The position numbers and the translations under genes are program-made. From positions 9,672,001-9,736,000 of the forward strand of contig NC_134031.1 in assembly GCF_964204645.1 (NCBI RefSeq): a stretch of DNA of 64,000 bases, in the 5' to 3' direction. This document shows, in pieces, positions 1,339-64,000 of the stretch; the stretch's first letter is position 1, and every line of letters starts with the position of its first letter. The stretch is from Tubulanus polymorphus. Taxonomy: Eukaryota; Animalia; Nemertea. The notes beneath the pieces were generated by a model, which ran no database searches, had not been told where the DNA came from, and saw only the letters and a program-made list of their open reading frames with translations.

Positions 1339-1354
1339 TTTTCATAAGATATAA

Positions 1355-2821: not shown

Positions 2822-2841
2822 ATAATTTTTTTCTTAAATAA

Positions 2842-3690
2842 ATGAGCGGGAGTTATATAAATCCTTCTAAGAATTCTAGAATATCTAATGCAATTTAAGT
2901 AGAAAGATCTCATCATATAATTACTCATAATCCTTCTAATATTAATCCTGATGAAACTTTATATGTTAGAAATCCTAGATTAAATCTAAATACTTATGAT
3001 TTATATACGCATTATAAAGATTTATGGTTAACTAAAGAAAATAGAAATAATATGATTTTCCAAGGGATCTAATCAGAAAACCAAAATAGATTAAGATCGG
3101 AAGCACATAATGCAGTAGTAACTTATGACGTAGATAATTTGATAAAAAAAATTTATGGAAGCAAATATAAAATTCCATTAGACTTTGAATTGATAAATAA
3201 TAATGCGCCTTTCTATTAATACGCAATACAAGAAGATATTATATTCGAAATAACGTTTGCTCCTGTTAATGAAATTGTATTATCAAGCGTTGTTAAAGAT
3301 ATGGATTATAAATTATCAAATATATATTTAGAATATGACACAGTAACTGATGAAAATATTGCTAACACAATTCAAACTAAATACAATCAAGGATTTTCAT
3401 TATTCTATGATTATATTGATAAATTTAAACTGTAACTATTAATGCAAATTATGAAATAATTAATGAGAATATTAACTTCCCAAGAAGATATATTTAAGGT
3501 ATATTAATACCTTTTACCATTGTAAAATATTCTAATGGTACAATAAAAGTTGATAATTATTATAATCCTGAAATATCATAAGTAGAAATAACAATTGAAG
3601 GTATCGCAAATATAATATTTTGTCAAGGAATGAGAATGATAGATCAATGGGTAGAAATTAAAAAACATTTTATGAATGAAAAAAAAATAG
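2842..3690 (+). pseudogene. Major capsid protein pseudogene
   Basis: Nucleotide similarity to the reverse complement of 50140-51122 from the ATG (ATGAGCGGGAGTTATATA) onward, with an internal deletion near 2995, stops and frameshifts. Confidence 0.8.
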
Positions 3691-14500: not shown

Positions 14501-14609
14501 GTGAGTCAAAGATTTATAGATTTTCTTCGCGGTAAAGGGTTGGGGAGTATTGTCTATGTTGTAAAAAATTAATTGATCTATATTTGTTAATGAAACCATT
14601 TTTATTCCT

Positions 14610-17600: not shown

Positions 17601-17677
17601 TTATTATGTCTCGCTTTTTGAGATTTACCTACATTAATTTTACATGTTGAACAGAAGTACTTCTTATCTGCTTCCAT
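14610..17677 (-). pseudogene. polB: Degraded protein-primed PolB (subtype B) in a host intron
   Basis: ORFs 17447, 17127, 16451, 16018 and 14976 align in order with 62715-63857 and 59001-61490 (AKKINFVPVIFH.LSGY.AHLFIKQL). Unrelated insert at about 15470-15980. Confidence 0.85.
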
Positions 17678-17739
17678 TTTTATAACAATTTTTTTATTAA
17701 AATTGATTTCATTTTATTCGACATCTATATCATGACATC

Positions 17740-23657: not shown

Positions 23658-23737
23658 GTAAGTAATGAAATTTAGATTTGCATCATAAATTGGTTGACGT
23701 CTCGTTTGTATGAAAATATATCTTGTTTATATAACAG

Positions 23738-25481
23738 GACATTATCTCGAACTAGTATTGTTCGCCTACCATCAGCGGGACTTGAGAACTTGGAAGAATT
23801 GGTAATCGAACGAACGTATACACTAAGATCTCTGCCATCCGTGATCCATTTTTCCAAGATGAAGCGAGCTCGATTAACATTCGCTAGTCATTGTTGTGCA
23901 TTCAAGAATCCAGAAAAACAGAATGAACATGAATTTAGGATGTTCATGAACAAGCAAGCGAAATTGTATAGAAACTGCAAGAGTGATACAATTGTTGACC
24001 CACCTGGAATCATTTGGAATGACGTAGCACACACGGCAATACCAACCGTTGTGATACCCCCTCCAAATTGTAGTGATAACAGACATGTTTTCCCGGGGTT
24101 CAAGTTAGATTGTACACCGCAGCCAAACGAATTCAATCCTTGTGAAGATGTCATGGGGTATGAATGGCTTCGGGTTTTTGTCTGGTTCGTTGTACTGATC
24201 TCGTTACTTGCAAATCTGTTCGTCCTTTTCGTTATGATCGCACATCGTAGTAAGATTAATGTGTCAAAGTTTCTGATGTCCAATTTGGCATTTGCTGATT
24301 TCAACATGGGCGTTTATTTGCTAATGCTTGCATGCATCGACATTCGAACACTCGGCGAGTATTTCAACTTTGCTATTGGATGGCAGTACAAAGGTGGCTG
24401 TCAAGCTGCAGGTTTTATTACTGTATTTGCCAGTGAATTGTCCATATTTACTTTAACGGTGATCACACTTGAACGCTGGTATGCCATTAGCCACGCAATC
24501 CATCTCACGAAACGTCTCAAAATGTCACAAGCTACAATACTGATGATATTTGGATGGTTTTTTGCTTTGACGATGGCAATTCTACCATTATTCGGTATTA
24601 GTGACTACGGTAGTACAAGTATGTGTTTGCCTTTTAAAACAGAAACGCCACTTGATAACGCTTATGTGGCCGGTCTTTTGGTGATTAACGGAATTGCATT
24701 TTGTATAATTGCCATGTGTTACATTAGCATGTACTGGCAAGTCAGGGGTAATAATACTACCGCTCGGAGTAGTGATGCCACTATTGCCAAACGAATGGCT
24801 TTGCTAGTACTAACCAATTTTGCGTGCTGGGCACCGATAGCATTTTTCGCACTTACTGCCATGCGAGGGTTGCTGCTTATAAACATACGCAATTCTAAGA
24901 TATTATTGGTATTCTTTTATCCATTGAATTCCATGACAAATCCATTTTTATATGCTATTTTCACCAAACAGTTCAGAAAAGATCTATTCGATATTACTGG
25001 TCAGCGGTGCAAGCGACGCACAGCGGCGCAAAGAGATCATTCTCAATCCGGGGCCCCCCTCAGAATTTCTACAGTTGGCCGTGGCAGCACTAGCGGACAG
25101 CAGTCGAATACATTCCCTGTTAGACATTCCTCGGATGGTTCCGTACTAACTCAGTATACAGATACGAAACTGGCGACCAATTTGACAGTAACGACAAAGC
25201 AAGTGCAACAGGCATCTCCTAAAGGTACCCCAAAGATGGCACATAAAATACTGCCAGTCAACAATCAAAATATACCCCCATTTTCTATAGCTTTAGAGAG
25301 TTTTATAGGAAACAGGAAGCTTAGTGTAGTACCTGAAACGGGTAGCGATAAAGAGAATTCTTCGGATCAAGAAGAAATGAAATGTTTTTTAGCCACAAAA
25401 ACACATTCACAAACGAACACAGAATTAGAGATGTTACGGAGAGATACACCAATCAATGGTGTCCTAATGGTATGGACCTAG
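23738..25481 (+). CDS. LGR1: Terminal exon of a type A LGR (glycoprotein hormone receptor, FSHR/TSHR/LHCGR/LGR1-like): last LRRs, hinge, 7TM, C-tail
   Basis: Acceptor ataacag|G. Hinge SHCCAF...FNPCEDVMGY, FLMSNLAFADF, ERW in TM3, IAKRMALLVLTNFACWAP, NPFLYAIFT. Symbol assigned by family type, not by phylogeny. Confidence 0.95.
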
Positions 25482-31888: not shown

Positions 31889-34257
31889 CTAAGAGTGTAC
31901 CACTATGCACATCAGATGATATCCTACAGCATTCCCCACACTCTCTTCTTCACTGAATTCATAACGCCTTTTAATTGCCTTTCTTGAACTCACATCCCTG
32001 ACCTCTACATTTCTGTCAACATCTATTCGCTTGCCACAGCATGCACATTCATCCCCTTGGGTGCCACGCGATTCACACATAGCACTACCTCATAGTGCAC
32101 ACCACTACAATTATGCAAATATAAATTACCATTGGATTCATATCCATCATAGACAGATGCAAAGGCTGCCCCTGAAAATCGTTGCCAACTTCCATTTATG
32201 TATGTGTATATATCAACCTTAAGAAAAGCAGCAGTGGCCAAAATTTCAACCTTAGTGGCCAAAGTGTTTACATATTTCATGCGGGAGTTATCAATATATT
32301 GATCCACACTTACTTGTGCATTTCTCAAATGTGGTTGAAACATACAGCATTCTGCTTCATATGCTTAATAACTTTGGTTCGCAGCACACGGTGATACCTC
32401 TCTAAACGTGTAATATAATATGATACAGCTCTGAAAAAGCAACTACCATCACCTTTTATTTGATGAGAACTGCATGGTGAACCTAATGGACCAGCATACG
32501 AAGGCATGCAGTTGTAGCCAAGGTCTGACATTGGAATACCAAAAACCGATGAACATGGAACATCAATATACGAACATAGTTGCTTACATTGCAACAGGTT
32601 GGTATATAAATGAACAATCATCATGGGAAGTTCCTGTGACAACCACATCATTATCATCATTAGTATATGATTGAGATTGTTGTTCAGTGGATTGCGATAC
32701 AACATTATGAGCTAGCAACAAATGCGAATCTTCAATGTACGTACCCTGGTTAATATATACCCCTGTCACCTCATTTTGAATCGGCTCATTTAAATGCATT
32801 GAGGCGGCTAGCAGCTGACAATGATTTACAACATCGCTAATTCAATTGCAAACCAATTGTTGCCGCAACACCATTGCAAATCCTTCAGGGGTCATCATAC
32901 CAGTTGCGTCACGTGAATGCGAATCAAATATCCAATATTTACCATCCTGTTTTAATACACAAAATGTATTACCAACAAATGTAACAAAACATGTACTGTA
33001 GTTACGAAAAGCCATCGTCAAACATTCACACAATTGCATTACTACGCCAAAGGCTCCAATTCGCATTTCATCACTTAAAGCTGACATCCCTACATACGAG
33101 GTTCCTACATATACATTGTATACACTTCCCCCTCTTTCTATTGCATTTGCAAGCTCATTCACTAACAAATATACATGGGATATAGCATTCATCCTTATCA
33201 AATTAGTATATATATCATTACCAGTATTCAAAACACAATCAATATCATTTGATTTTCACGTTAAAATTCCCTTATTTAGCGCATATATACGTGCCACTAA
33301 TGACTTTGCCACACATTGCTTACCAGAATATATTCCAAATTTTGAGTGCCCTTGGTGGCAGTTTCCACCCACTATCCATTTTGTCATTAATGATGCCGTT
33401 GTGTTTGGTGAACTACATCCCATTGCATGCACTACATCACATCTTGACAATTCATTCCTGTTTTCAATCAAGGAATCATTAATTACATCTGCCGTAGCTG
33501 GCATAAAATCATTAACTACATGAGACGAGGCTGCCATGGAATCAATTACTACATGTGCTGTAGCTGGCATAGAATCATATCCTACATGAGACATAGCTGG
33601 CATAGAATCATTAACTGCGTGAATTGGGTAGTATCTACCGTAGAATCATTTACTACATGTGCTGTAGCTACCAAGGAATCATTAACTACATTAGCTGTAG
33701 CTGGCATAGAATCATTAACTACATTAGCCGTAGCTGGCATAGAATCATTAACTACATTAGCCGTAGCTGGCATAGAATCATTAACTACATTAGCCGTAGC
33801 TGGCATAGAATCAGTAACTACATTAGCCGTAGCTGGAAAGAATCATTAACTACATTAGCCGTAGCATCATTAACTACATCAGCCGTAGCTGGCATAGAAT
33901 CATTAACTACATTAGCCGTAGCTGGCAAGGAATCATTAACTATATTAGCCGTAGCTGGCAAGGAATCATTAACTACATTAGCCGTAGCTGGCATAGAATC
34001 ATTAACTACATTAGCCGTAGCTGGCAAGGAATCAAAATTTTTTACTACATGAGCTATACCTGACCTAATATCATAAACTGCATTTGCTGTAGCTGACTGG
34101 CGATTTTTGGACAAAGAAGCCATCACCTGAAAAAAATAATACATCACCATTAAAATTAATATAAAATTAGACAGCAAATGAAATCACAGGCGCATTAATG
34201 ATATTAAATTACCTCTTTTGGTTGAAACCAATTTTTACGATTTTTCCTTTTCGGCAT
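31889..34257 (-). pseudogene. Spliced Helentron/Helitron-type gene remnant with herpes-tegument-like (peptidase C76) and OTU cysteine protease domains
   Basis: 45-nt first exon (MPKRKNRKNWFQPKE, 34213-34257) and 86-nt GT-AG intron, then an 11-aa repeat. C76 motifs HQG...GKQC and FDSHSRD; OTU motifs GDGSCFFRAVS and HYEVV. Several frameshifts. Confidence 0.7.
33470..34050. repeat. 33-bp coding minisatellite (MPATANVVNDS, about 17 units)
   Basis: GAATCATTAACTACATTAGCCGTAGCTGGCATA repeated. Confidence 0.9.
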
Positions 34258-37183: not shown

Positions 37184-38225
37184 GCATCATAAGTAATAGG
37201 GATAATAGGCTTTCATACCAAAGGTCGAACGGTCGAGCTCATAAAAAATGAAAAATATGAAAATAACAATAATTTCTATTTGAATTAGTAGCGAAACTCA
37301 TAAAAAATTCTCACACACTCGAATTTATTTTTCATTTTTACTCGCTAGAAAAAAGTGTGAGTAAAGTGTGAGTGAAATAAATTCGAGTGTGTGAGAATTA
37401 TTTTTCATTTTTTATGAGTTTCACTCCTAATTCAAGTAGAAATTGTTATTATTTTCATGTTTTTTATTTTTAATGAACTCGCCCCTTCAACCTTAAATAT
37501 GAAAGCCTATTATCCCTATTACTCTTAAAATATTCATATACATGAATAAAATATATATGAATAACATATAAATTGATAGATTATTCAATATAAAAGTGTG
37601 AGTGAAATAATTCATATTTAAAACATTGAATATTTATATTTGAATGAGTTTTAATAAAAATTTTGTTATAAAAATGAAGAAAGAAGAAGAAGAACCCAAC
37701 TTTAAAATCGAAATCAATGAAACCAATAAATCATTTTCACAGTTTTACATTAAAAATTATATTTCAGCAACAAATTTAGTGTCTGCAAGACATTATAAAA
37801 TCGATAATATTACTATGATTAATCAAATATTATCAAATGAAACATATTTAATTATTGAACTAGTAGATACTTTTGATAATGGCGTTAAAAATCCTAAAAT
37901 ATTCAATACAGTTTTTAATTTTAAAGGAACTTAATATTAATTCATTTAAATTTTGATTGCATAATGAAATTTTAAATACAGCAATATAATCTGTTAATTT
38001 TAATTCTTGATTAATTCTACTTAATATATATGATTTTGAATTATCATCATGAATTGTTAAAACACGCTAAGTTATCCAAAAACGCTCGGGTGAGAGCGAG
38101 TTGGCTTCTGCGCATGCGTCAATTTGCATAATAAATTATTCTGAAAACTACAACATTCAAACATGTAAATTAAAGCAGATATACACAATCAAGAATAAGT
38201 TTTTTTTATAACACTATGTGGATGC

Positions 38226-38508
38226 TATTTATCATTTCAACAGTCAAACAATTTATCATTTCAACAGTCAAACAATTTATCATTTCAACTGTCAAACAAT
38301 TTATCATTTCAACAGTCAATCAATTTATCATTTCAACAGTCAAACAATTTATCATTTCAACTGTCAATCAATTTATCATTTTAACTGTCAATCAATTTAT
38401 CATTTCAACTGTCAAACAATTTATCATTTCAACAGTCAATCAATTTATCATTTCAACAGTCAAACAATTTATCATTTCAACTGTCAATCAATTTATCATT
38501 TTAACAGT
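38226..38508. repeat. 24-bp tandem repeat, about 12 units
   Basis: ATTTATCATTTCAACAGTCAAACA repeated with minor variants. Confidence 0.9.
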
Positions 38509-38561
38509 CTATTAGATATTTAAATCATTTAACTCAATTCAATAATTATAATGTAGAATTG

Positions 38562-39212
38562 TTACTCTTTACGCCAGTTTTTATGTTTAATTGTTTCATA
38601 ATGCTTTGATTTATGTGATTTTAAATATTTACCTCCGCAATAACAATGCACTTTTTCATTAGGATTGAATTTTCTAAATTCATCATCTAATTTACATTGA
38701 ACTGCAATATCTTTAAATGATTTTTCATTATCTAATTCACATTGAATGCCAATATTTGATGAATTTTCATTATAGATAATTAGTTTATTATCAAAATTGA
38801 AATAATATAATTGTCTTTTTTCAATTCTTAAGTTAATCAAATCATTGTAATCTTTTGAAAGTATTATATCATCATTTCTTTCATTGAAAGGGGTTTTAAG
38901 AATATTAATTATGTTTTCATCTAAAGTTCCTTTAAAATTAAAAACTGTATTGAATATTTTAGGATTTTTAACGCCATTATCAAAAGTATCTACTAGTTCA
39001 ATAATTAAATATGTTTCATTTGATAATATTTGATTAATCATAGTAATATTATCGATTTTATAATGTCTTGCAGACACTAAATTTGTTGCTGAAATATAAT
39101 TTTTAATGAAAAACTGTGAAAATGATTTATTGGTTTCATTGATTTCGATTTTAAAGTTGGGTTCTTCTTCTTCTTTCTTCATTTTTATAACAAAATTTTT
39201 ATTAAAACTCAT
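38562..39212 (-). CDS. Intact 216-aa subterminal protein with a C-terminal C2H2-like zinc finger
   Basis: CYCGGKY...KHYETIKH. Homologues at 301-974 and, inside the other TIR, 37644-37934. Confidence 0.7.
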   Translation of the reverse strand: MSFNKNFVIKMKKEEEEPNFKIEINETNKSFSQFFIKNYISATNLVSARHYKIDNITMINQILSNETYLIIELVDTFDNGVKNPKIFNTVFNFKGTLDENIINILKTPFNERNDDIILSKDYNDLINLRIEKRQLYYFNFDNKLIIYNENSSNIGIQCELDNEKSFKDIAVQCKLDDEFRKFNPNEKVHCYCGGKYLKSHKSKHYETIKHKNWRKE

Positions 39213-41479
39213 TCAAATATAAATATTTAATGTTTTAAATATGAATTATTTCACTCACACTTTTATATTGAATAATCTATCAATCTATATGTTATTCATA
39301 TATATTTTATTCATGTATATGAATATTTTAAGAGTAATAGGGATAATAGGCTTTCTTATCTAAGGTTGAAGGGGCGAGTTCATTAAAAATGAAAAACATG
39401 AAAATAATAACAATTTCTACTTGAATTAGGAGTGAAACTCATAAAAAATGAAAAATAATTCTCACACACTCGAATTTATTTCACTCACACTTTACTCACA
39501 CTTTTTTCTAGCGAGTAAAAATGAAAAATAAATTCGAGTGTGTGAGAATTATTTTTCATTTTTTATGAGTTTCGCTACTAATTCAAATAGAAATTATTGT
39601 TATTTTCATATTTTTCATTTTTTATGAGCTCGACCGTTCGACCTTTGGTATGAAAGCCTATTATCCCTATTACTATCATAGTCAAATACCCTGTGGGTGT
39701 CGCACAAATCCATATTCAAACATCCTATTGATCAAGGGGATCACTGATCGGCACAGAGTCGGACACGAGGCGATACCTGCACATTGAAGCCCGCGCGTCA
39801 TTTCTTTTGATACCTCGTCAACACAAGTTTTCCCGCTGCAACTGCTATTCTCTAAGCCCACGGGCAAATCACTGGGAGTGCGTCATTCATTTTGATTTCA
39901 TCTCTGCCCATTGGCGAGGCGAGGCCCAGCGCGGATCCGCGGAACCACGATCGATGTAGAGACACACAATGATTCAACATCTTTACAGCTCGGCAGTGCA
40001 TATAATAATTACAGAATTATATACCATGCAATGATGAACAAAATGGGTAAGTGTTAAAATTACTGTTTGAAGACCGCGGCTGAATGTGAAGTCTGCGGCA
40101 ATAAATGAGTTCATTTATACATGAATTGATAATCGAAGTGACACTCGGCCTGAGGGTTGATTTCGGGATGACGACTCAAAAAACATGTCGCCCCATTGAA
40201 TGGGGCTAAATTTCCGGTGTTTCCGTGCTTTTGTAACGATGATTCGTGAAAAAACCCGCGAAGTATTTGTAGATCTCAGTGAGCTGAACGATATCATACG
40301 GCCTGTATCGACAACAGCGGAAAGGTAACAAAGCCTTTGTTCTTTTAGTGAAAATAGTGTGACATAAAATAATAATAATAATAATCACGCGAATCTCAAT
40401 AAGGTTTTCTGTGATGTAACAGAAAACCCTAATAAGAAACACGCGAATCTCAATAGGGTTTTCTGTGATGTAACAGAAAACCCTAAATATACCTGCAAAG
40501 CAGCAATAACAGGTTTTCTGCACAGTCTTAGAATCCTTTTCAACGGTGGATTTCGACAAAGCATTTGATAAAGCACAGCATCAGCCATTACTAAACAGGC
40601 TATTAGGAAACAGTATCAATGATAGGTCGCCCAAATGGCTCAGCAGTAATCTCTGAACGAAAACTTGTAGCCCAAATCAATGGAACGCCTCATCTTGAAA
40701 TAAGTCGGTCTATCTAGTGGAGTCACGCAAGGTAGTATCCTAAGTCGTCTTCTGTTTGATGTCCTGACAAATGACATACACAGTAATCCAAAATATACCA
40801 GACCAAGTAAATTTCCAAAACGATCTTAACACGCTGTTTGACCAAAAAACTTAATGTTCCGACAAGAAAATCTTGTTCGAATAAAAACAATTCTGTTTGA
40901 TCGAACAATACGCTTTCTGTTGGAACCAAAACTTTTCTTCATTCTGAAAAAAGAATTTGTTCGAATAAAAATGAAAAACTTTTTGTCCCAGCAAAAAAAT
41001 TTGGTTGAGCGAAAACAATTTTTTTCTAACAAATGTTTGAATGAAAACAATTCTGAACGTAATACTTAGTACTTTCGGTTCAGAGAAAAAACTTTTACAA
41101 TATACTTGTTCGAACGAAAGACTTGAAAGGCTGAATCCAAGATCCGAAGATATTGTAGATACTCTTTGAGGATGAGAAATGTGATGAGCGATTCCCAACT
41201 CTAACCAATAAAAGTCGAGATTTGAGTTAAATTTGTTTACTAATTGTTAATAGTTATGTAGAATTAAGATAAATCGAAATTTCCTTCTTTTCAATTTGAA
41301 AAAATGCAGCAATTTTCAAGCATAGTTCTGCATTTATTTTTGGGTTTATTCTTAGATTAAAAGCACAATCATAAATTCAGGCTATAACCTCTCATTACTG
41401 AAATGGTGGTTTATTTTCAACGGGGGCCTGGATGTCTCTGCATCTTAAGATGTGCATTTCGGAGTGTTCGAATTTCCCT

Positions 41480-41790
41480 GAAAGCTAACATTTTAAATTT
41501 ATAAGTTGGTATTTTATCTTTTGATCTATTTGAATTTAATCTTTCTATTTCATTATTGATTTCTTCTATTCTATGACATAGCTGTTTGATGACCAAATGA
41601 GCATCATACCCTGATAAATTATGAAATATTACTGGAACAAAGTTAATTTTCTTAGCTTGTAAGTTACAATTCTCATGCGCTGCTCCTCTAAACTTTCCAT
41701 TCAAATGATCATGGTCTCTTACTTTTTTATCTTTTAGATTAAATGTCTTTTCACAATAATAAGATTTATCAGCAAACTCAAATTCTTTAT
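41480..41790 (-). pseudogene. polB: pPolB fragment (subtype B)
   Basis: GKFRGAAHENCNLQAKKINFVPVIFHNLSGYDAHL; closest to the 14976-15263 copy. Confidence 0.85.
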
Positions 41791-41890
41791 CACGATTGAT
41801 AGAACACTATATCCGTGTTGACGCGATGTAGAGAGAATCCCACAATTATAACGAAAAAGTCCGAAAATGAAACTTCGAGATTCGAGTAGT

Positions 41891-41940: not shown

Positions 41941-44214
41941 GAAACTACAAAAATTATGAGATATATATACAATCCAGAGACAAAGAGACTCATTCAAGTA
42001 ATCAGAGATGATACAAACTAAAGGAAAATTAACCTAGAAACAGTTACACGCTAAAATAGATTAAAGGGAAGCAAACTAAGGGGTAATTATAAAGAGCAAC
42101 AGTGAGTATAAATATAAATAAGAACTTGAAATCAGTAGTAAAAAGACACTTAAATTAAAACAATGGTGAATTCAAGTTGAGAGACTTACATAGATGAGAG
42201 AACAAATAACAAATAATCAAAGGGGAATCAAGTGTTGAGTTTAACCAGTTTACAGAGGAATTTAGATATAAGTTTATTATGGGGTGAAAAACCATTGTTT
42301 AGGTTTACAACGTTGTTAGAATTTTGATTCCCCTTGATTCCCCTTTTATTATTTGTTATTTGTTCTCTGGATTGTATATATATCTCATAATTTTTTATAT
42401 CTCATAAATAACTCCTATATTCTGTACTTGGTGTAGGCCTAGATGGTGCAGCTTGGTTTATCCAGAGATGGGAATTTCCGCGGATTTCGGTATTGAAAAA
42501 TGACATTTTTCCAAATAGTCCAAAAATGATGTAAAAGTATAGGGGGGGGGGGGGTGTTAGTATAGTTATAGGGAATAAGTTGTTTCATACCAAAGGTCGA
42601 AGGGTCGAACTCATAAAAAATAAAAAATAAATTCTCGCAAACTCGAATTTATTTTTTATTTTTTACTCACTCGCCCCTTCAACCTTTGATATGAAACAAC
42701 TAAACCCCTATTACTCTTAAAATATTCATATATATGAATAAAATATAAATGAATTACTTCTAAAATCAATTTTAATAAAAATTTTAGTATTGAAATGGAA
42801 GCAAATAAGTACTACTGTCCAAATGTAATATAAATATAGATAAATCCCAAAAAGCAAGACACAATAAAACTAAAACACATTTAGAGAATAAATTGAAACT
42901 AGAATATTTACAGTTATATTTAGAACAGTTAACAAAGGCAAAGAAATTTATTGAATTATGGAACAATGATCCAAATAATGAACAATATGTTGAGGAATTT
43001 GATATCAAGGATCCGAAATGACTTATCTGGACAGTTATAATTACTGCTCCTAATATATAAACAAAAGTAGTGAGATGGTGCCGTACGGCGCCCACATGGT
43101 GATATCAAATAGAATTCAAATAAAATATATTAAAAAAACAATAACTTCAACTAGCCATTATTTCTATTTTAATTTTTGATATTTTCTTTTACAATTCTTT
43201 TCAAAAGAGAATACTTTATATCACAAATAAAAGATACTAAAAAAACAATAACATTTAAATTGACAGATTATTCAATATAAAAGTATATATTTACAACATT
43301 ATTTCAATATTCATATTTGTGTGAGTTAGATTTTTAAACATTAAAAGTGTTAGTAAAGTGTGATTGAAATAATGCATAGCTGTTTATACTAGAACATGAT
43401 TCTATTTGAACCTATATACATTTCATGTAATGAACGATTGAATAAATCTATAAATTCACAGCTGTTACAGCTGTTACTACGACGCCGAGACATATGAATC
43501 ATTATTGCAAACGTGTAGAGAAAATTCTAGAAAGGTGTGCTGGAACTTTGAATAGAGATGACATGTCATAATCAGAAACGTGTAGAATATTCTAGAAAGG
43601 CGCGCCGGAACCAGATGACGTGTAATAATCAACGGCGTGTTCATTCTAGAAATCGCCCCGGAAATGAACAGACGCTGTAACATTGTGCTCAGGATATTCT
43701 ATCTCTCGAAACGAAATTAGGAGTTTATAGTTTACAATTATAAATCTAAATGTAAGTACTGTTTTTTGTAGTTATTAGGGCTATTAAATATGAAACCTTT
43801 AGATATATTTAAGTGTATTTAGTATATCTTTTAGATGGCTAGAGTTGCCGCTAATATCTTTTAGATTAATAAAACGCAATACGCATCAAGAAGTGATAGA
43901 GAAACTCAAGATACTCTTTCTGACTGAGGAATCAACAGCAATGGATATCGAACCAATAGAAATTAGCACAAGAAACACAAGAATCACCAAAAGATCGAAG
44001 AAGAAACTATATAAGAATTTCAAAAACATTAAGACTCCAATGATTAAGTTTAACATTTGTTGATGTAGTTAAATATTTACCGGCAATTGAAAAATGTTTG
44101 TAATTACAGATTTTATATATAGAAATCAAATGATGTATTGGAAGAAACGGCCGAACAACTTGTATAATGTATTGTGTAAATCTACTTGGTGAATGTTCTA
44201 TGTTCGGTCGTTTC

Positions 44215-44690
44215 TATTTGCATAATTAATATATAATTATGATTAGCGCATGCGCATTAAGCAAAACCGGCCATAAATGGCCGCATGTGACTGACACATG
44301 TAACGCATGTGACGCAGACATGAACGCGTTTGAATTTTCTATGTTCAGTTGTTTCTATTTTACAGAATTTATAGAATGAATATATAATTATGATTAGCGC
44401 ATGCGTATTAAGCAAAAGCGGACATCAATGGCCGCATGTGACGCATGTAACGCATGTGACGAGAACATGAATGCGTTTGAATTTTCTATGTTCAGTTGTT
44501 TCTATTTGCATATATTTGAATATATAATTATGATTAACACATGTGCATTGATCCAAACCGGTCATAAATGGCCGCATGTAACGCATGTAACGCATGTGTT
44601 GTTTCTATTTTACAGAATTTATAGAATGAATATATAATTATGATTAACGCATGCGCATTAAGCAAAAGCGCGCATGAATGCGCGCTTTTG
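44215..44690. repeat. Irregular tandem repeats containing GCGCATGCG and ATTTGCAT motifs
   Basis: TATAATTATGATTA...CATGCGCATT-like units at about 44232, 44383, 44523 and 44633. Confidence 0.75.
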
Positions 44691-44829: not shown

Positions 44830-45498
44830 ATGGAACCAGAACAACCACAAATTATCAATATTACAAATAACACTGGTGTTATAAATTTATATTACAAGAA
44901 GTGTTCTAAATGTGAATTAGATACATTAGCTTTAACAGAATTTAGTAAGCGTAAAATTAGCAAAGATGGTTTTCAATATTGCTGTAAAACTTGTTTTAAA
45001 CTATATACCAAACAATATCGAGAAGATAATAGAGAAGCTTATAATGATTATATGACAGAATATATGAGAGAAAGATATCAAACAGATCTTAATTTTAGAT
45101 TGAAACAATGCTTAAGATCTAGATTAACACAACTATTCAACAAAGAAACACATTCAGAAACACTATCTAATTTATTGAGTTGTTCAGATGAATTCTTAAA
45201 ATCATGGATAATATATCAATTCGATGATAAAATGAATATAGATAATTATGGTGAATACTTTCATATTGATCACGTGTTGCCGATTTCTAAATTTGACATG
45301 AATGATGAATACAATAAAAAACTTATTTGGAATTGGAAGAATTTAAGACCTTTAGAAAAGAAGGAAAACATAACCAAATCTAATAAACTAGATTTACAGT
45401 TATATTTAGAACAGTTAACAAAGGCAAAGAAATTTATTGATCAATGGAATAATGATCCAAATAATGAACAATACGTTGAGTCTTTAATGAGTGGTTAA
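44830..45498 (+). CDS. HNH endonuclease with N-terminal Cys4 zinc finger (large-DNA-virus type)
   Basis: KKCSKC...DGFQYCCKTC; FHIDHVLPI...NWKNLRPL...ENITKSNK. Confidence 0.8.
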   Translation: MEPEQPQIINITNNTGVINLYYKKCSKCELDTLALTEFSKRKISKDGFQYCCKTCFKLYTKQYREDNREAYNDYMTEYMRERYQTDLNFRLKQCLRSRLTQLFNKETHSETLSNLLSCSDEFLKSWIIYQFDDKMNIDNYGEYFHIDHVLPISKFDMNDEYNKKLIWNWKNLRPLEKKENITKSNKLDLQLYLEQLTKAKKFIDQWNNDPNNEQYVESLMSG

Positions 45499-46270: not shown

Positions 46271-47358
46271 ATGATGAAAAAAGAACAATATTTAAGAGAT
46301 TTATATTACAACCCAGAAAGTGAAGTATCATATTCTAGCGTTTCAGAATTATGGAATAAAATTAAATCTGATAATGGTGGTACAAAATATAGTGAATTAA
46401 AATCATGGTTACAAAATCAACCAACATATCAAATCCACAAGAAAATGGATAAAACTTATTTAACAAGAAAAGTTATGGTTTCATATATCGATCAACAATG
46501 GCAAGCAGATTTAATTGACATGAAGAACTTAGAAGAATACAACAAAGGATATTTCTGGATATTTAATGTTATAGACATATTCAGTCGATACGCATGGTCA
46601 ATTCCAATCAAAAATAAAACTGGTATCGAAGTAACAAATGCTTTTAAATCATTATTTAAAGAAGCTATTCCAGATAAGATACAATTTGATGAAGGTAAGG
46701 AATTTTATAACAAACATTTTAAAAAACTATTATCTGATAACGATGTAGATTATTTTTCAACACACTCAGATAAAAAAGCATCTATTATAGAAAGGTTTAA
46801 TAAAACATTGAAATCTAGAATGTGGAAATATTTTACTGCTAATGAAACATATAAATATATCGATGTGTTAGATGATTTAGTGAAAGTTATAATAATTCTA
46901 AACATAGTTCTATAAATATGAAACCTATACAAGCTAGAAAAGAAGATAATTCAGAAATAGTTTGGAATAATTTATATGGAGCATTTGTTACACATGATTT
47001 TGGTGAACCTAGATTTAAAATAGGACAACACGTAAGAATATCTAAATATAGAAAAACCTTTTATAAAGGTTATACACCAGATTTTACAGAAGAAATATTT
47101 AAGATTAAAAAGATAATATTAACTAAACCATTTGTTTATAAATTAGAAGATCTAAAAGATGAAGAAATATTAGGTTATTTCTATGAACAAGAATTATCAC
47201 TTGTACCAAACCCAGATGAAATAGAATACAAAATAGAAAAAGTATTGAAAACAAAAACTCTTAAAGGAAAAAAGTATTCTTTGGTGAAATATAAAGGATA
47301 TGATGATAAATTTAATGAATGGATTTTATCTAGTAAAATTAAAAGAATAAATGAATAA
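46271..47358 (+). CDS. Retroviral-type DDE integrase with C-terminal chromodomain (one frameshift near 46885)
   Basis: QWQADLIDM, VIDIFSRYAW, FDEGKEF, IERFNKTLK; after the shift YNNSKHSSINMKP and YKIEKVL...LVKYKGYDDKFNEWI. Confidence 0.92.
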
Positions 47359-47832
47359 AGATTTATTCATATTCGAACCGCATAATATGTTAATAACTGG
47401 AGTAAACAATTGTGGTAAAACACATTTCATATTAGATTTGTTAGAAACTATTTATAAGAATCATTTTGATAACATAATATTATTTTGTCCTACTTATGAA
47501 ATGAATAAAACATATAATAGAGATATAGTTAAGATGAAAAAGTTTATTATATTAGATCCTAAAACAGTAAAAGAAAATTTAGATAATTGTATTAAAATAG
47601 CAATTGATATTTATAAAGGATCAAATACATTATTCATTGTAGATGATTGCGCAAATTTACATGATTCAAAAGTGAGAGAAAGTGAGTTAAATCTATGCAA
47701 CAATCATTGGAAGAAAATCAAATTATACCTACTGAGTTACATGATGAATATATGAATAAATTAAAGAATAATAAAGGTTCAAAATTATTACTGAGATTAC
47801 AATTTCCATATGAATATAAATTTATGAAATAA
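47351..47832 (+). pseudogene. A32/FtsK-HerA-type packaging ATPase with internal deletion
   Basis: Walker A GVNNCGKT and Walker B FIVDD. The GRH arginine-finger region is missing at about 47690, and the C-terminus continues in another frame to TAA at 47830-47832. Confidence 0.85.
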
Positions 47833-49221: not shown

Positions 49222-50400
49222 TTATATAATAAATTTTTATTAAAGTTAAAATTTTAATACATAACACTATCTAATGGTGAATTTACAAAATTTAATTGCG
49301 CGTCAGATATAATATGAATGTACATTTTGAAATTTAGGCTTCCTTTTTTCTTTTTCATGAATAATTGTATTCCATCTTTTGTATTTTGTAATTTTTTTCC
49401 AGAACCATGTAATGAATTATCCTCTGTTGTTCTAAAATCAAACCATAATGCATATTTATTACCGGTATAATAATCAATTTGATTAATCTTACAATTTTCA
49501 GATGATTTTACTTTTTCATTCATAAAATGTTTTCTAATTTCTGGCCATTGATCAATCATTCTCATTCCTTGACAAAATATTTTATTTGCTATTCCTTCGA
49601 TAGTTATTTCTACTTTTGTTATTTCAGGATTATAATAATTATCTACCTTTATTGCGCCATTAGTATATGTTGCAATGGTAAAAAATATTAATATACCTTT
49701 AATAGATCTTCTTGGGAACTTAATATTCTCATTAATTATTTCATCATTTGCATTAATAGTTACAGTTTTAAATTTATCAACCATCATTATTTTCATGTGT
49801 ATCGATGTATGGAATATGTTTATATACTTTACCTCCTTCCATTTATATAATAAATTTTTATTAAAGTTAAAATTTTAATACATAACACTATCTAATTGTG
49901 AATTTACAATATTTAATTGCGCGTCAGATATAATATAAATGTGCATTTTAAAATTTTTGATTCCTTTATTCTTTCTCATGAATAATTGTATTCCATCTTT
50001 TGTATTTTGTAATTTTTTTCCAGAACCATGTAATGAATTATCCTCTGTTGTTCTAAAATCTAACCATAATGCATATTTATTACCGGAATAATAATCAATT
50101 TGATTAATATTACAATTTTCAGATGATTTTACTTTTTCATTCATAAAATGTTTTCTAATTTCTGGCCATTGATCAATCATTCTCATTCCTTGACAAAATA
50201 TTTTATTTGCTATTCCTTCGATAGTTATTTCTACTTTTGTTATTTCAGGATTATAATAATTATCAACATTTATTGCACCATTAGTATATGTTGCAATGGT
50301 AAAAAATATTAATATACCTTTAATAGATCTTCTTGGGAAGTTAATATTCTCATTAATTATTTCATCATTTGCATTAATAGTTACAGTTTTAAATTTATCA
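49159..50400. repeat. 621-bp tandem duplication covering the capsid 3' part and the start of the next gene
   Basis: 49161 and 49782 begin the same sequence. This creates ORF 49254-49796, a copy of the capsid C-terminal part. Confidence 0.9.
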
Positions 50401-51122
50401 ATATAATCATATAATAATGAAAATCCTTGATTGTATTGAGTTTGAATTATGCTTGAAATATTTTCATCAGTTACTGTATCATATTCTAAACATATATTCG
50501 ATAATTTATAACTCATATCTTTATTAACGCTAGATAATACAATTTCATTTACAGGAGCAAATGTAATTTCGAATATAACGTCTTCTTGAATTGCGTATTT
50601 ATATAAAGGTGCATTGTTACTTATCAATTCAAAGTCTAATGGAATTTTATATTTGCTTCCATATATACTTTTTATCAATTTATCTACAGCATTAGTTAAT
50701 ATTGCGCTATTGGCTTCAGATCTTAATTTATTTTGGTTTTCTGATTGGATGCCTTGAAATATCATATTATTTCTATTTTCTTTAGTTAACCATAAATCTT
50801 TGTAACGCATAAATAAATTATAATCATCTAATGAGAAAACTGTTTCTGGGCCAATCTTCATAGTTAATTTTTTAATCAAATATCTTCCAACATTATCAAC
50901 AACATTATTATTATTATTACCGATTACTTTTATATCAGCTGATAAATAAATACTATTTGAAACATAAAAAGTATTTTGTGTTAACCGAGGAATTCTAACA
51001 TATAAAGTTTCATCGGGATTAATATTAGAAGGGTTATGAGTAATTATATGATGTGATCTTTCTGCTTTAATAGCATTAGATATTCTAGAAATCTTAGAAG
51101 GACTTATATAACTCCCACTCAT
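49875..51122 (-). CDS. Putative double jelly-roll major capsid protein
   Basis: Intact 415-aa beta-rich ORF (THNPSNI...LYVRIP, YKLSNICLEYD, YALWLDFRT, HGSG). Size and context fit a Polinton-type MCP; fold not verified. Confidence 0.72.
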   Translation of the reverse strand: MSGSYISPSKISRISNAIKAERSHHIITHNPSNINPDETLYVRIPRLTQNTFYVSNSIYLSADIKVIGNNNNNVVDNVGRYLIKKLTMKIGPETVFSLDDYNLFMRYKDLWLTKENRNNMIFQGIQSENQNKLRSEANSAILTNAVDKLIKSIYGSKYKIPLDFELISNNAPLYKYAIQEDVIFEITFAPVNEIVLSSVNKDMSYKLSNICLEYDTVTDENISSIIQTQYNQGFSLLYDYIDKFKTVTINANDEIINENINFPRRSIKGILIFFTIATYTNGAINVDNYYNPEITKVEITIEGIANKIFCQGMRMIDQWPEIRKHFMNEKVKSSENCNINQIDYYSGNKYALWLDFRTTEDNSLHGSGKKLQNTKDGIQLFMRKNKGIKNFKMHIYIISDAQLNIVNSQLDSVMY

Positions 51123-56328: not shown

Positions 56329-57646
56329 ATGGATGAGAAGATAGCATGTGAAATTTGTGGTGAACTTATCAGGAAAAGTAATATGGCTCGACATATGAAA
56401 AAACATGAGGAAAATTATAAACCCCCTAAAATAAACTGCCCAAAATGTAATAAATTGTTCTCAAGAAATTATGTCAAAAAACATTCAGAGAAGTGTAAAA
56501 TTAATGGCGCAACGGCTAATGTTGATAGAAATGAAAGTAATAGTAATTCTATTGAAGTTGAACCTGAAATTATTTGGAAAAGACCTTTTTTTATTCTATG
56601 ACAAGGATAATATAAAAGATCATTTCTGCGAGCCTTGTCGAATAAAATATAACCCTGAAAATATAGACGATTGGGAGAATCATCAATTTCGTAAAGCACA
56701 TATAGATAAAATTTCTAATAAATTTGAAACTGAATTCAATGAAAGAAAAAATAATATATTAGAAAAAATAAAATATGAGAAAACGTTACCAGATAATAAA
56801 GAAACAGTTGAAAAGTTAGAAAAACAATATAATGAATTAACAAGAAAAACATATTATTGTAAATATTGTAAATTGATTATTACAACAAGTAATTCAAATC
56901 TACATAATAGAACAATAAAACATAAAGAAAACGTAAGAAAATACCAGACACTTAATGAAGATCTATTACCAATAAATTATAAACGAAAATGTCCACAATG
57001 TAGTTATGCGACCTTAAGACAAGAAGGTAATGTGTTATTTTGTAATGAATGTGGATGGCAAAAGCATTTATGGAGTGAAGAAAAAACTAGAAGTTTTCTC
57101 ATAGAACCAAAATTAAATTATCTAGATGAAATTTTTAAAATATTTTCTGTAGAAGATCATACACCAGAATATATGCAATGGCTTGAAAAAATGAAAATAA
57201 TAGAAAATAAAAATGGTGAAATAACTAAAAAAGATATTATAAAAACAATTATTCCATCAACATTTAACACAAAAGAAAAGAAAATGTATTTATATTTATT
57301 ATTTAATGATTATTATGAAAAACCTAAATTAACAGAAGAAGATATGTAAAATATAAAAAAAACATTCAAACAAATATTAATGTATCATTTGGAAAATAGA
57401 ATAACAGATTCAATAAATTATGAATTCTTTTTAAATAAGATTGTAAATTATTTAAACATAGATATTATAATTCCATTTGATGAATTAACAAACAAAAAGA
57501 AACAAAGAGAGCGAGATGAAATGTGGAACAAGTTAGAACTTTATTTAAATGAGAAAAATGGAATGGAAGAAGAACCTGAACAATTAAATGAAAATGAAGA
57601 AGCCAATAGTGATTTCGATTATGATGATATTGATTTTATGTTTTAA
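56329..57646 (+). pseudogene. Multi-zinc-finger protein with VLTF3 (poxvirus A2-like late transcription factor)-like C-terminus
   Basis: Three ORFs joined by one frameshift (about 56585) and one in-frame TAA (57347). Zinc ribbon CPQC...CNECG, then INYEFFLNKI...KKQRERDEMWNKL. Confidence 0.55.
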
Positions 57647-60600
57647 TAACCATAAGGTAATGTTTTTATACCATCATCTAAAATATGCCTTTTATCATCA
57701 AATGGATTTAAACTAGTTTTTTCAACTTCATTAATGTACATCTCATGATCTTCTGATCTTAAACAATTCATCTTGTGTTTCATTACAATTGAGTTATATA
57801 AACACTTCATATAATCTTGAAATTCTATATGTTTATCAACCACATGTTTTGTTATTCCTTTTAACTTTTTAGCTTCATGATCTTTTGTTCTGTAACTATA
57901 CATTTTACTTCTTATCCCAACAAATTCAATCATTTCATCACCCCTAATTCATCTTTAAACTTACCAGGAATCTTTTTATTATCATTGCTAAATAGTTCAT
58001 GATCTTTGGGATAATTGCTAAAATCAAAATAATGTTTTAATGTTTTTAAGTCTTTTGTTATATCATTTGTCTTGATTTTTAGTATGTAACTGTCAGTATT
58101 GAAGCAAATTAATGGAAATCCACTGTTAAATGTACCATCTTCAGTTGATAAATCATAAACATAATCTGATGGGTTATATATTTCAAATAAATCTTTAACT
58201 TCTTCAGTTAAATCTTTTTCTGTGTGGCTTAGATTAAAGCAATTTGGTTTAGATTTAATCAATCCAATATTCATATTAAAACCTAATGAATTGCATAATA
58301 TATTCAATCCTGATATAGCAACTTTTCCTTTTTGAGCAAAGGTTATCTTTTTATCCTTTGTAAATTTTTTAGCACCATCTGCTGCATAGAATCCAATGAA
58401 GAACCATTTTCTTAAATTATTTTTTGCATTTAATACATAATCTGGAACTATCTTTTCTTTTGTTGAAGTATTACTTTTCACTCTTGCATGAATATAGAAT
58501 TCATCATTATATTTTATAGCAAAATCTTTAGGATTATTTGCAAGTATTCTATAAACTGCTGATGATTTCATATGATCCATGATTCTAAATGTTTTATGTG
58601 AATAAACTTCTTCACAGAATTTCTTTATTCTTTCTAATAATTTCAAGTCTTGATTGCATAAATACCAACAATATTTATTACCCCAAACATAATTATACAC
58701 ACCTGCTGAACCATCTCCCATGAAAAATCCTTTGATAAAATATTCTTTTTCTTCTAATGTTTCGGGTTCTATATTATAAATATTATCAATAATTTCATCA
58801 AATGACATATGATTCATTCTTTGGAAAAATCTTTTATGTAATAATTCATCTCCAATTTTTATATCAGTTGGTTTTATTTCATCGCCATTTCGTTTAATTA
58901 AACTATGATCTTCTGTAACATCAACGAACCCTAATTTAGTTCTAACTCTATAGATTTTCTGATTTGTTTTATGCCTAATAATATTCTTTAATTTTTTCCA
59001 TCAATTTCTTGTCCAAACATCCATTAAACCATTTATTTGGATTAATTCTTTTTCACCATATGAAATATAACATTCATTTTGTTTTGGAATTATTTCTGAA
59101 ATTCTTCTTATCAATATTTTATCATTACATTTTAATAATATTGGGGTGTCAGCTTTTACAGAATCAAAATATAATATTTCAATATGCTTTTCCCCAAAAA
59201 GTGGTTGTAAAACATTATAATAAAAATCATACATTAATAATTTTGATATTTCTAAAACAGTTGAACCTATAAATATTGGTTTATTAAATTTCATTGAAGT
59301 TCTTTTTAATTTAACTGCTGTTAAATAATCTTCAAATCTTTTATTTCCTAAATGTCTAGGGCTTGATTGTAAATGTCTTAATCTTTCAGAATTATTTACT
59401 AATTCAATATCATTTCTATTTCTAATATTTTCACATGTTTTTCCATAAAAACTATTATTCATTAATTTGAAGAAATCTTTTTCAAAATCTGTTTTTGATA
59501 TGGTTCTCTGTTGAGTATTGAAATCTATATATTTTTCTAACCACTTCGATTGATTAAATTCAATATATCTATGTACTTTCTTTAATTTCATTCCTTGTTT
59601 TAGATAAAATTTTAACATTCTATAATGAACAATATAATTGTATTTATTATTTTGTGTAAGTAACAATTTTTCTGTAAAAACATGATCTTTCGGTTTTATT
59701 TTCTTCTGGTATTCACTTAAATAACTATCATCTACAGTTAAATGTTCTGGGCAATAAGGTAAGTTTCTTGTTTTAAACTTTATATTTTCAGGATATTCTA
59801 AATCAACTACAAAGAAATAACCAATTGGTGCTTCATCTTCTAAACTCATAATTGCGCTTTCCCAATTAGTTTTATCATCATTTTCAACTTCTGTTAATAT
59901 ACAATTTTTGTATGGTTGAGGTTGCATCATTGCCCAACCATATAAATTATTGGCGTCAATATATAATAATTTATATTCATCATTTGCTTTAAAATATCTA
60001 TCTCCCATAACACCACTAATTCCACCTCTAATTGATTTTTCAAATAATAAAACCATGTCTGGTTCTTTTAATAAATCTAATTCTACATTTGTGTATTTTA
60101 AACCACATTGCCAGGTTAAACCAGGACTAGAGTAGCAATAACAAGGATCAACATTAAAATGATTCAAATTAACTTCTCTAAATTTTTCAAATATGTCAGC
60201 CAATATCATAACATCTGATTTTAAATATAAATCAACTAATTCACCATGATTTTTCATCTTAAAATGGTTCCAAATATTTAATGTTCTATTAAACACTTCG
60301 TCTTTCACATACTCCTCTTTTAATTGATCATAAAATTGATCTTTTAATAATTCTGTTACATTAAAATCATTGTGTGTTTTATAAAATGAATAGGGAATTG
60401 CACCTTTATATCTCAATAATTTAAAATCTTGTTCATTTGGATAATAATATCGAGTTATAACAAAATCATTATCAACTAAACTTTTTGATAAATTATCCAA
60501 TGAACTTGCTAGAAATCTATAAGAATCTAAAAATCTAATGCAACCTAATTGAAATGAAATATAATTTTCAGATGTTTTAGCTAATAGTTTAAAATCATAT

Positions 60601-62711
60601 TTTCTTACATTTACACCATTCATAGCATTATATTCTTCTATTTCTTGATTAATTGCACCCAACTTTCCCGATAATTGTTTTATAAATAGATGGGTATCAT
60701 AGCCTGATAAATTATGAAATAATATTGGTACGAAATTAACTTTCTTAGCTTCTAAATTGCAATCTTCATGAGCAGCTCCACGATATTTTGAATTTAAATG
60801 ATCATGATCTCTAACTTTTTTATCAAATGAATAAAAACGTTTTTCACAATAACAACAATGAGTTGCATAATTAAAATCAATTTCATCTTCTTTTGTCATA
60901 ACTATTCTTCTATTTTTGTTTAATAATTTCGCAAAATCACTTTCTAATTCAATCATTTTGTCACAAAAATCATTAACTACATTTTCACCTCTAAAAGAAA
61001 TATATTGACTTTCATATAATTCAGGATAATTTGATTTTATATAAATTCCATAAGCAGCAGCTCTTTGATGAACTTTTTTAATTGTATTTATAATTGGTGG
61101 GTCTTGTGTTGTGTCTTCATTTAATTCATTTCCTTTATCCATTGATTTTAATAATTGCTTTTTGTTATATATTTCTTTTCTATCTTGATCAGTTAATTCT
61201 TTATTCAACGATTCAAAATCCCCATGAATTACAAATGGAACAATATTCTTAAATTTATGATTAGTAAATTTCAATTTATAATCTTTTTCTGTTGGCATTA
61301 TTAATTTACAAAAATCTTTATTATCACATAATTCTTTATGTTTTAATAATGTATTCTCAGTCATAAATTTAGATAAACATTTTCTACATAGATAAATTTT
61401 ACGATGATGATCACTTTCTGTTCTAATGAATAAATCAATTTGTTTTAACCACATATAATGTTCATTTTCATCTTTTTTGTAATATAACAAATCTATAGCA
61501 TTTTCATCATCATACTATTCTGTTAAATATAAAGCTTCCAATGTATAATCTTTAATATTTTCACCTTTTGTCTTTGGTAATTGCATTAATTCGAATACAT
61601 TTATTTTTAAATTATCAACTTTTTCTATTTTAGGAATCATTTTTATAGTTACTGGATATTGATCAATTTTATATAATGTTTCATATTTCCGGTAATATGT
61701 TATTCTAAAACTATGTGTAATATCTTCTGTTGGGTGTAAGCAACTAATAATTGCCCACAGAAAACATTTATTATCTTCATTTTGAACATTTATTACTGCT
61801 TTTGTTGTAAATGGTAATTTAATATAAGATGATGCTTTAATATCCTTTTCTGTTGTAAAGTTTGAATCATTTTTATACATTTTATTATCTTTTTGATGTT
61901 TTATTTCTTTTTGTATTATAAACATTTAAATCTAAATATATAATTTCATTCAATGTTAAGCCAGAACCCTCAAAATATCTTTCTTCAATATGACGTTTAA
62001 ATTCATTAAATATTTTTTCTAACTTCTCTTTTATTTGTGTTTTTGAAATTATTTCTTCAGAGTGTGTTTGAATATTATAATTCATTTTTTTTCTGACTTT
62101 ATAAAACTTACTTTCCCAGAGATACTAATTTTTGGATATTCAACATCTGTTATCAAATCTAGTATTTTTTCTATTATTTCATTAAATGTACTATAATCTT
62201 CTATTGTTGTACCTTTAAAAAATCTAAATATAATAGCTGCAGGACCAATTTTACTATGTAATGTTTCTAAAATTTCAATTGCATCTTTTATTTCTAGTGA
62301 ATCAATATAATTTCTAACATTTTCCATGTAAGGTTTATTTGAAATGGATTTAGTTTTTGAAGTTGGTTTTTTTACTTTTTGAGGTTTATCATCAAAATAA
62401 TCTTTTCCTAAAACATTATTACTCAAATTTTGGTGGTATTTTTGTGATTCGAGATGTCTATTATAATTCCTTTTTACTATAAATTCATTACAAACTTCAC
62501 ATTTTATTTCATCCACATTCATATTTTCTAATCTTTCTTTTCTTTCATTGGAATTTTCTGGAGTTTCAAAATCTATTACATTTTTTATATGATTTGCAGT
62601 TTTTTCATGTCGTGTTTTATGAGATGTATCGATGTATTTTTTACAATATTGACAATAATATTGATTTTTATTAACATTATTGTTTTCTGGTTGGTGTTCA
62701 TTCTCCCCCAT
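57643..62711 (-). pseudogene. polB: Protein-primed family B DNA polymerase, intein-containing, with five lesions
   Basis: OTU-like NEDNKCFLW, ExoI GDFES, EndoVII-like DHDHL...RGAAH..CN, HNLSGYD, FLDS, SIRGG, DANNLYGWAM, KLMNNSFYGKT, YFD/TDS, GKFKDE, EFVGIRSKMY. Frameshifts at about 62085, 61900 and 57942; stops at 61515 and 59001. Confidence 0.95.
58098..59162 (-). mobile_element. Intein with LAGLIDADG homing endonuclease in pPolB motif C (355 codons, one internal TGA)
   Basis: YFD|SVKADTPILL (block A), VTEDHSL (block B), FIKGFFMGDG and FIGFYAADG (endonuclease blocks C and E), YVYDLSTEDGTF (block F), LICFN|TDS (block G). Confidence 0.92.
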
Positions 62712-62796
62712 TTATTAGGAAAATAAATTACTTGTGGTGATGAGTGGTGTCTCGCCCTCTCGCCCTCTGGTATGAAACCCACATCTTCCAATTACT

Positions 62797-64000
62797 ATTA
62801 CAAATGGTACTTTATTTTTGTAATCATATTTTTTGAATTCTAATATTTTATCCTTTTCATTTGGTAAAACTAATTTACAATAATCATGATTTTCACATAA
62901 TTGTTTATGATTTAATAATGCACTTTCAGTTCTGAATTTATGTAAACATTTTCTACATAGATAAATTTTATTATCAAAATCATTTTCTGATTTAAAAAAT
63001 AAATCAATTCTTTTAATCCACATATGATGATTCTCATAATATAATATATCTATAACATCGTTTGAATCATAATCTTTTGATAGGTATAAAGGTTCTAATG
63101 TATAATGTTTTATATTGTTACCTTTTGTATTTGGTAATTTGATTAAATCAAATACATTTATCTTTATATTATTATCTCTTTCTATTTTTGGAATGTTTTT
63201 AATTATAACAGGATACTTATCTATCTTATAATTATTTTCAAATGGTTTATAATGAGTTAATCTAAAACTATGTGTAATATCTTCTGTTGGGTGTAAACAA
63301 CTTATAATTGTCCATAGAAAACATTTATCATCTTCATTTTGTACATTTATTACAGCATTAGTTTTAAATGGTAATTTAATATAACTCGATGCTTCAATAT
63401 CTGGTTCTTTATAATATGATACATTATTTTCATCTATTGGTTTTGATTTAGTTAACTTATTATATTTTGTGTTATAAACATGTAAAGTCATAAATATTAT
63501 TTCATCAAATATTAAACCAGATCCTTCAAAATATTTCTCTTCTATTTTAGTTTTTACTTCATTATAAAATTTATCTAATTTATCATCTATATGTTGTTTA
63601 GATATAATATGTTGTGAATGAGAATTTATATTATATATTGATACAACTGATATACTAATTTTAGGATATTCAACATCAGTTATTATTTCTATTATTTCTT
63701 TCATATTTTCTAAATGTTTTTTATTTTCTTCTAATGTTTTTCTTTTATGAAATTTAAACTCGATAGCTGCTGGGCCAATATCACTTTTAAATGCTTCGGT
63801 TATCTCTATATCTTTTTTATTATACAATAAATTGATATATTTTCTTACATCTTCCATGTATGGTCTTTTATTGTTTAATTTATTTTTTATGTTTTTATTG
63901 TCTTCTGTTTCTTATAATTATCTTTATCAAAATAATCTTCACCTAAAATATCATTATTCTTATTTCTAATATGACTTTTAGATTTTAAATGTTCTTTATA
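62797..64000 (-). pseudogene. polB: N-terminal part of a second pPolB (subtype B), cut by the main element terminus
   Basis: ORF 62715-63857 is paralogous to the main pPolB N-terminus and closer to 16000-17500. Homology stops at KNKVPFVI, exactly where the AGTAAT terminus begins. Confidence 0.85.

Follow-up and report, generated by a model that had tools for sequence, protein, structure and literature searches.

A LAGLIDADG intein at the pol-c site of a protein-primed Polinton DNA polymerase in the genome of Tubulanus polymorphus

We describe what is, with a probability of about 0.78, a full-length LAGLIDADG intein in motif C of the protein-primed DNA polymerase of family B (pPolB) of a Polinton, with predicted splicing and likely homing. 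It lies in a 64,000-nucleotide stretch of the nemertean Tubulanus polymorphus (NC_134031.1, positions 9,672,001 to 9,736,000; hereafter the window), and the copy in the window is broken. More tentatively, at slightly less than even odds, we propose that this is an active homing intein of Polintons, that is, a protein-splicing gene drive among the endogenous viruses of the animal, and the first metazoan nuclear intein family, with tens of copies.

The intein and its host polymerase gene

The pPolB gene is encoded on the minus strand. Its N-extein (59163-61490; PF03175, 68.3 bits) contains the motifs of the exonuclease and those of the polymerase as far as YFD, the intein occupies 58098-59162 (355 codons, from Ser1 to Asn355), and the C-extein (57643-58097) begins with TDS. 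As the preliminary description had stated, the ORFs 59001-61490 and 57930-58817 belong to one minus-strand frame with a single stop between them; reading the stop as X places it at intein codon 54 (59001-59003). When the bases of 58098-59162 were shuffled, none of 10,000 shuffles contained one stop or fewer. All the motifs attributed to the 355-codon insert between YFD and TDS were found: the splicing motifs Ser1, T83-x-x-H86, Y336-D337, Asn355 and Thr+1, together with a pair of LAGLIDADG helices that contain Asp150 and Asp262.

In profile searches, the window intein scored above the cut-off with TIGR01445 (27.8 bits, cut-off 24.5) and PF14528 (26.1 bits, cut-off 22.5) and under it with PF14890 (31.0 bits, cut-off 35.8); the related protein P0004 exceeds the PF14890 cut-off (37.7 bits). 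The best sequence match in the PDB was the intein endonuclease PI-PkoII (E 4.8e-8). The predicted Hint fold was recovered in an AlphaFold model computed from a 62-row alignment (pLDDT 93.9, pTM 0.93), for which Foldseek ranked endonuclease-bearing inteins in positions 1-6 (best E 2.5e-17), the top matches being TliVMA, PhoVMA, PI-PkoII, PI-PfuI and PI-SceI. At the level of sequence and model, these results confirm that 58098-59162 is a full-length LAGLIDADG intein at YFD/TDS, the pol-c site. Both its point of insertion, which separates YxD from TDS in motif C, and its kinship to other pol-c inteins place it in this allele family, and its position matches the pol-c site YGD/TDS given for the Mimivirus PolB in the part of Ogata et al. 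(2005; PMC549080) available, in agreement with the original assignment.

The colinearity expected after removal of the insert was also observed. The N-extein is 79% identical over 793 aa, up to the site, to the intein-less polymerase P0276, in which the similarity resumes at TDS, and the flanks abut at residues 578/579 of the empty polymerase P0159; once 58098-59162 is removed, both flanks are exactly colinear with these two proteins.

In unbroken copies, the intein is predicted, from its sequence and the model, to excise itself from the polymerase protein. Precursor splicing would follow the standard route, in which an acyl shift at Ser1, the attack of Thr+1 and the cyclisation of the Asn would restore DTDS; since the polymerase needs DTDS, and splicing would restore it, the element may be forced to keep the splicing domain. 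The penultimate residue of the window intein is Phe, while in seven relatives this residue is His (4), Lys (2) or Ser (1); a penultimate His is common in inteins, but it is not obligatory. This atypical residue, together with the fused nuclease domains that occur in Polinton polymerases (PMC10748475, as far as its accessible text goes), is what could be said for a Hint/nuclease domain that does not splice and stays fused, like the HNH and VSR domains of those polymerases. We regard such a domain as the least probable of the alternatives considered, since the catalytic DTD is split exactly at a known intein allele site and all 62 aligned sequences share Ser1, Thr83, His86, Asp337 and Asn355.

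The copy in the window is dead: in addition to the stop in the intein, its polymerase carries further breaks. A frameshift near 57940, within the C-extein, separates the final 96 codons. Further towards the start of the gene, its N-terminal part (61515-62711, minus strand), which includes a zinc finger, is broken by additional stops and frame changes at about 61500-62100. The preliminary description does not mention these breaks. Consequently, reading through the single stop makes the intein whole in this copy, but not the polymerase. At 62715-63896 (minus strand) lies the truncated N-terminal part of a second pPolB, which belongs to a related subfamily. The segment 61227-63896 thus has two N-terminal regions of pPolB in tandem; they are about 79% alike, and 188 genomic reads of run X6 jump the 1,569 bases between them; from the tandem regions and the skipping reads, we infer that the window copy is a mosaic or a nested insertion of two subfamilies.

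The Polinton and its animal host

The element is, judging by its genes, a canonical integrase-bearing Polinton that has decayed. Besides the pPolB (PF03175, as above), it encodes a retroviral-type integrase with a chromodomain, in two ORFs (46271-47358, plus strand; PF00665, 41.2 bits; PF00385, 24.4 bits), the combination that defines a Polinton, followed by an A32-like packaging ATPase (47351-47755, plus strand; PF04665, 27.4 bits, which passes). The integrase is split and the ATPase is truncated. A probable major capsid protein is encoded at 49875-51122 (minus strand), with a weak PF16903 score (16.8 bits, under the cut-off of 24) and a fitting size and position; a tandem partial duplicate of the 3' part of this gene is present at 49254-49796 (96% identity over 300 nt). 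No protease was matched among the 24 window proteins scanned with profiles, and neither terminal inverted repeats nor a 6-bp target duplication was seen in the longest 25 of 174 inverted pairs; the element extends beyond the end of the window. On the left side of the element, a free-standing HNH/endonuclease VII-like ORF (44830-45498, plus strand; phrog_1035, E 6.9e-17) lies beside the integrase and, from its similarity, is possibly a second selfish nuclease of the element. There is a partial copy of this ORF at 42896-43252, and tandem repeats of about 140 nt occur to the left of the element at 44190-44690.

The contig is assigned to an animal because a large exon of a host gene at 23694-25481 (plus strand), encoding a GPCR of the glycoprotein-hormone-receptor (LGR) type (PF00001, 110 bits), matches the thyrotropin receptor (E 3e-122) and the lutropin receptor (E 4e-118). 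Related decayed Polinton fragments were seen at 1205-3683, 14561-17698 and 41483-41791, comprising an inverted capsid region and polymerase pieces; the polymerase fragments at 14561-17698 and 41483-41791, which belong to the same family, flank the GPCR exon and stop short of motif C. The window also contains a 2.3-kb element (37294-39562) in which 652-nt inverted arms (98%) enclose a tandem array of 24 nt, six copies of a AGTAATAGGG-type end motif within 19543-42608, and a 33-nt array at 33402-34100. The 2.3-kb element and the AGTAATAGGG-type end motifs are possibly non-autonomous Polinton derivatives.

The stretch is partly present in five runs from two studies, none of which is recorded as RNA; a small share of it was found in the marine metagenome run X5. 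The run X6 consists of raw genomic reads from a third, independent study with the same species label, and about 12% of it was read. Its depth was approximately 176-268x on the four intein bins and approximately 400x on the adjacent extein bins; the excess on the flanks may reflect related elements of this genome that lack the intein or are more distant. Among the X6 reads aligned to the stretch, 1,137 of 29,170 were at least 99% alike and 21,360 were 90-99% alike. The stop codon of the window intein was present in none of the 204 X6 reads at the site; at this position, the contigs listed for X1 (18) and X2 (1) likewise differ from the window. The stop is therefore either private to the window copy or an assembly error, and its absence from the reads places the intein in a diverse multicopy family, which we infer to number tens of copies in the genome. 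No joint of an empty allele was seen among the 15 joints listed of the 121 in the reads of this organism.

These data bear on whether the window could be an assembly chimera or a contaminant, in which giant-virus polymerase DNA was joined to a Polinton, or DNA of a free virus to that of the host. It is true that no contig piece among those listed covers the entire stretch compared. However, X6 covers the intein together with its flanks, and the predominance of reads 90-99% alike is what is expected for a diverse endogenous family; moreover, an animal GPCR exon is flanked by decayed fragments of the same family, and the same junctions as in the window are found in independent database proteins. 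An artefact of this kind is very unlikely, only marginally less so than a fused domain that does not splice.

Relatives of the intein, their origin and their spread

A search with the intein yielded 226 proteins among 3,353 candidates, of which the best 120 are listed. In seven of the top ten matches, a Polinton-type polymerase carries an unbroken intein at this site: P0003, with 64% intein identity to the window, and P0004, P0005, P0006, P0007, P0011 and P0012, with 40-49%. Most of the other matches are RNA-primed family B polymerases whose inteins, at YGD/TDS, show 40% identity or less, and a few are type II topoisomerases; the identity to inteins of giant-virus metagenome-assembled genomes is about 40%. 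Within the cluster of P0004 (136 members), the 15 members listed comprise 7 with the intein, 6 empty ones and 2 that fall short of the site, and the contigs on which they sit measure between 57 kb and 1.0 Mb. Within that of P0007 (121 members), the 15 listed include 5 with a whole or partial intein, 1 empty and 9 that do not cover the site. A profile search returned many additional fragments on long contigs. The long contigs with many broken copies suggest that these relatives, too, reside in eukaryotic chromosomes.

Other searches gave few related loci. None of 17 stretches in the search of viral contigs with P0002, and none of 597 in that of metagenome contigs with P0003, was confirmed as a related locus. 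Alignment scans of viral and metagenome contigs returned 160 loci, with a pPolB extein in L081 only; the 10 loci from a scan of prokaryote genomes had no more than 36% identity over the full length or matched in short pieces; and in the search of 50% representatives, for which 150 proteins are listed, none of the 44 examined matches the pPolB extein. Phage records contributed two weak matches only. P0166, a Polinton-type polymerase with 63% identity to the window N-extein, bears the UniRef label Sulfurimonas sp., which probably reflects bin contamination. The same intein family also occupies the pol-b site (KxxxN/SxYG) of RNA-primed polymerases and sites in type II topoisomerases (members outside pol-c: P0416, P0417, P0422, P0424, P0427 and P0008; some hold two to three inteins), a distribution that, on similarity, represents non-allelic spread of the family.

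All the trees of inteins and exteins came from quick searches. The pPolB inteins formed a single clade (12 of 113 rows, SH-aLRT 99), recovered in a second tree (14 of 60 rows, support 100). Rooted on four pol-b-site inteins, this clade is nested among the pol-c inteins of RNA-primed polymerases, some of them from giant viruses, which bears out the kinship to large-virus PolB inteins put forward previously; a clade of RNA-primed pol-c inteins that leaves out the pPolB ones was rejected (p-AU 0.0035, 31 selected rows). The placement of P0006 inside the pPolB clade is not forced (p-AU 0.19). The sister clade (support 96) includes P0020, P0032 and P0018; P0020 and P0032 are 99.7% and 99.9% identical to the GVMAG contigs L001 and L014, respectively, and polymerases of this clade such as P0018 may be phage-like.

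Taken as sequence evidence, these relationships make a large DNA virus the likely donor. The ancestor of the clade would have moved once, from the YGD/TDS site of an RNA-primed family B polymerase to the YxD/TDS site of a Polinton polymerase, and the donor polymerase would most likely have come from a large DNA virus present in the same cell as the Polinton, presumably through co-infection. The suggestion in the preliminary description that a Polinton-like virus acquired the intein can be kept as to its viral origin; the element is instead a canonical integrase-bearing Polinton, and the trees indicate that the capture was made not by the window element but by an older lineage, as one older clade is spread over several Polinton polymerase lineages. 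Integration of Polintons would then bring the intein into host genomes, where the copies decay, as the one in the window.

After its entry, the intein likely spreads between copies of the element by cutting empty sites: the endonuclease would cleave alleles without the intein, in other copies or families of Polintons, and repair from the intein-plus copy would transfer the intein with some of its flank. Alternatively, the intein may have entered Polintons in ancient times and then been inherited vertically, with repeated loss, so that it splices while homing no longer operates; we consider this improbable, although it is the strongest of the alternatives. Among the plus polymerases, there is partial agreement between the trees of inteins and exteins (P0007 with P0011/12, P0004 with P0005), and the GC3 of the intein (0.149) is near that of the N-extein (0.121), both of which are compatible with vertical descent. 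An N-extein tree of 70 of 135 rows was built with all 14 plus polymerases and 56 empty ones (26 chosen by rule and 30 at random from the other 95); it requires 10 state changes, at least 7 of them forced by starred branches. These counts speak for homing, although gain and loss are indistinguishable in them. P0140 (plus) and P0143 (empty), whose flanks are 99.5% and 100% identical, show that the two states coexist in near-identical polymerases, which points to homing, but they could also represent a precise loss.

Several observations argue against vertical inheritance alone and in favor of homing. Both LAGLIDADG aspartates, Asp150 and Asp262, are kept in 8 of 8 aligned Polinton-type members at 40-64% identity. 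The window and P0003 are more alike in the intein (64%) than in the N-extein (58%), and the nearest exteins to that of the window (85% and 72%) are empty; on the N-extein tree, the window extein is sister to the empty P0159/P0276. P0006 carries an intein 43-46% identical, yet its N-extein has no significant match to that of the window (best E 0.52). Finally, in the P0004 family the differences are concentrated at the site. Between P0004 and the empty P0133, 4 of the 15 residues that precede the site are different, as against 3 of 485 further upstream (Fisher p 1.8e-5, a post hoc value for a pattern seen first, with related empty rows), and all 8 empty proteins of the family that were compared differ from P0004 at 4-5 of these 15 residues; the three closest show 2-3 differences in the 485 upstream residues, and three others 22-23. 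The flank of the plus alleles in this family resembles that of a sister family, in which P0219 has the same ENLHCHYMD. This pattern of residues fits co-conversion or selection for resistant targets. Within the P0004 cluster, the empty alleles P0129, P0131-P0133, P0135 and P0136 show altered surroundings of motif C, such as DTDA and DCDS, and their sequences make them candidates for homing-resistant targets.

Comparison with known systems

The window intein resembles the pol-c inteins of Mimivirus, of large DNA viruses and of archaeal PolB in its site, in Ser1, Asn and Thr+1, in the LAGLIDADG endonuclease and in size, that of Mimivirus having 351 aa. It differs from them in that its host protein is a protein-primed Polinton polymerase, multicopy in an animal genome. 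The finding concerns a selfish viral element and not a host gene, and it likely records gene flow from large DNA viruses to Polintons. Metazoan genomes are described as being without inteins in the accessible parts of PMC5784728 and PMC8529194, while inteins of animal-infecting iridoviruses are already known (from a reference title in the former); PMC12220804 and PMC3671162 mention inteins in general terms only, in the portions available. Against this stated absence, we find a complete intein in a multicopy animal element, with unbroken relatives and with empty alleles in related elements, a system that offers a direct test of protein splicing and intein homing in animal cells. In the literature searched, whose coverage leaves room for a prior mention, no Hint-type intein was reported for the polymerase of a Polinton.

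The closest eukaryotic cases are those of algae and a labyrinthulomycete, whose endogenous viral DNA polymerases contain inteins, and the inteins of Anaeramoeba (Gallot-Lavallee et al. 2023, PMC10710043). In the text available from that study, these inteins share with ours a virus-derived origin, a place in the gene of a DNA polymerase that lies on a nuclear scaffold of a eukaryote, and viruses as carriers, but they reside in viral-like polymerases of non-animal hosts; the words 'animal', 'Polinton' and 'Maverick' do not occur in it. Nuclease inserts in Polinton polymerases are also known, as HNH and VSR domains of pPolB (Jeong et al. 2023, PMC10748475). According to the parts of that work available, those polymerases have fused nuclease domains only, whereas the element described here has a complete splicing domain at the active site; 'intein', 'Hint' and 'LAGLIDADG' are absent from its main text, and the supplements of this large pPolB survey could hold such inserts. 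The accessible text of Krupovic et al. (2024, PMC11071308) suggests that the nuclease domains of Polinton polymerases stem from intein invasions, and the window intein provides the Hint-bearing case absent from this proposal until now.

The Hedgehog/Hint autoprocessing domains of animals likewise place a Hint fold in animal DNA, but by established knowledge, and as far as the available part of PMC5784728 describes them, they have neither extein ligation, nor a homing endonuclease, nor plus and empty alleles. The intein of T. polymorphus belongs to an allele family, pol-c, that was known already; its presence in the protein-primed polymerases of Polintons, and in multiple copies in an animal, is newly found.
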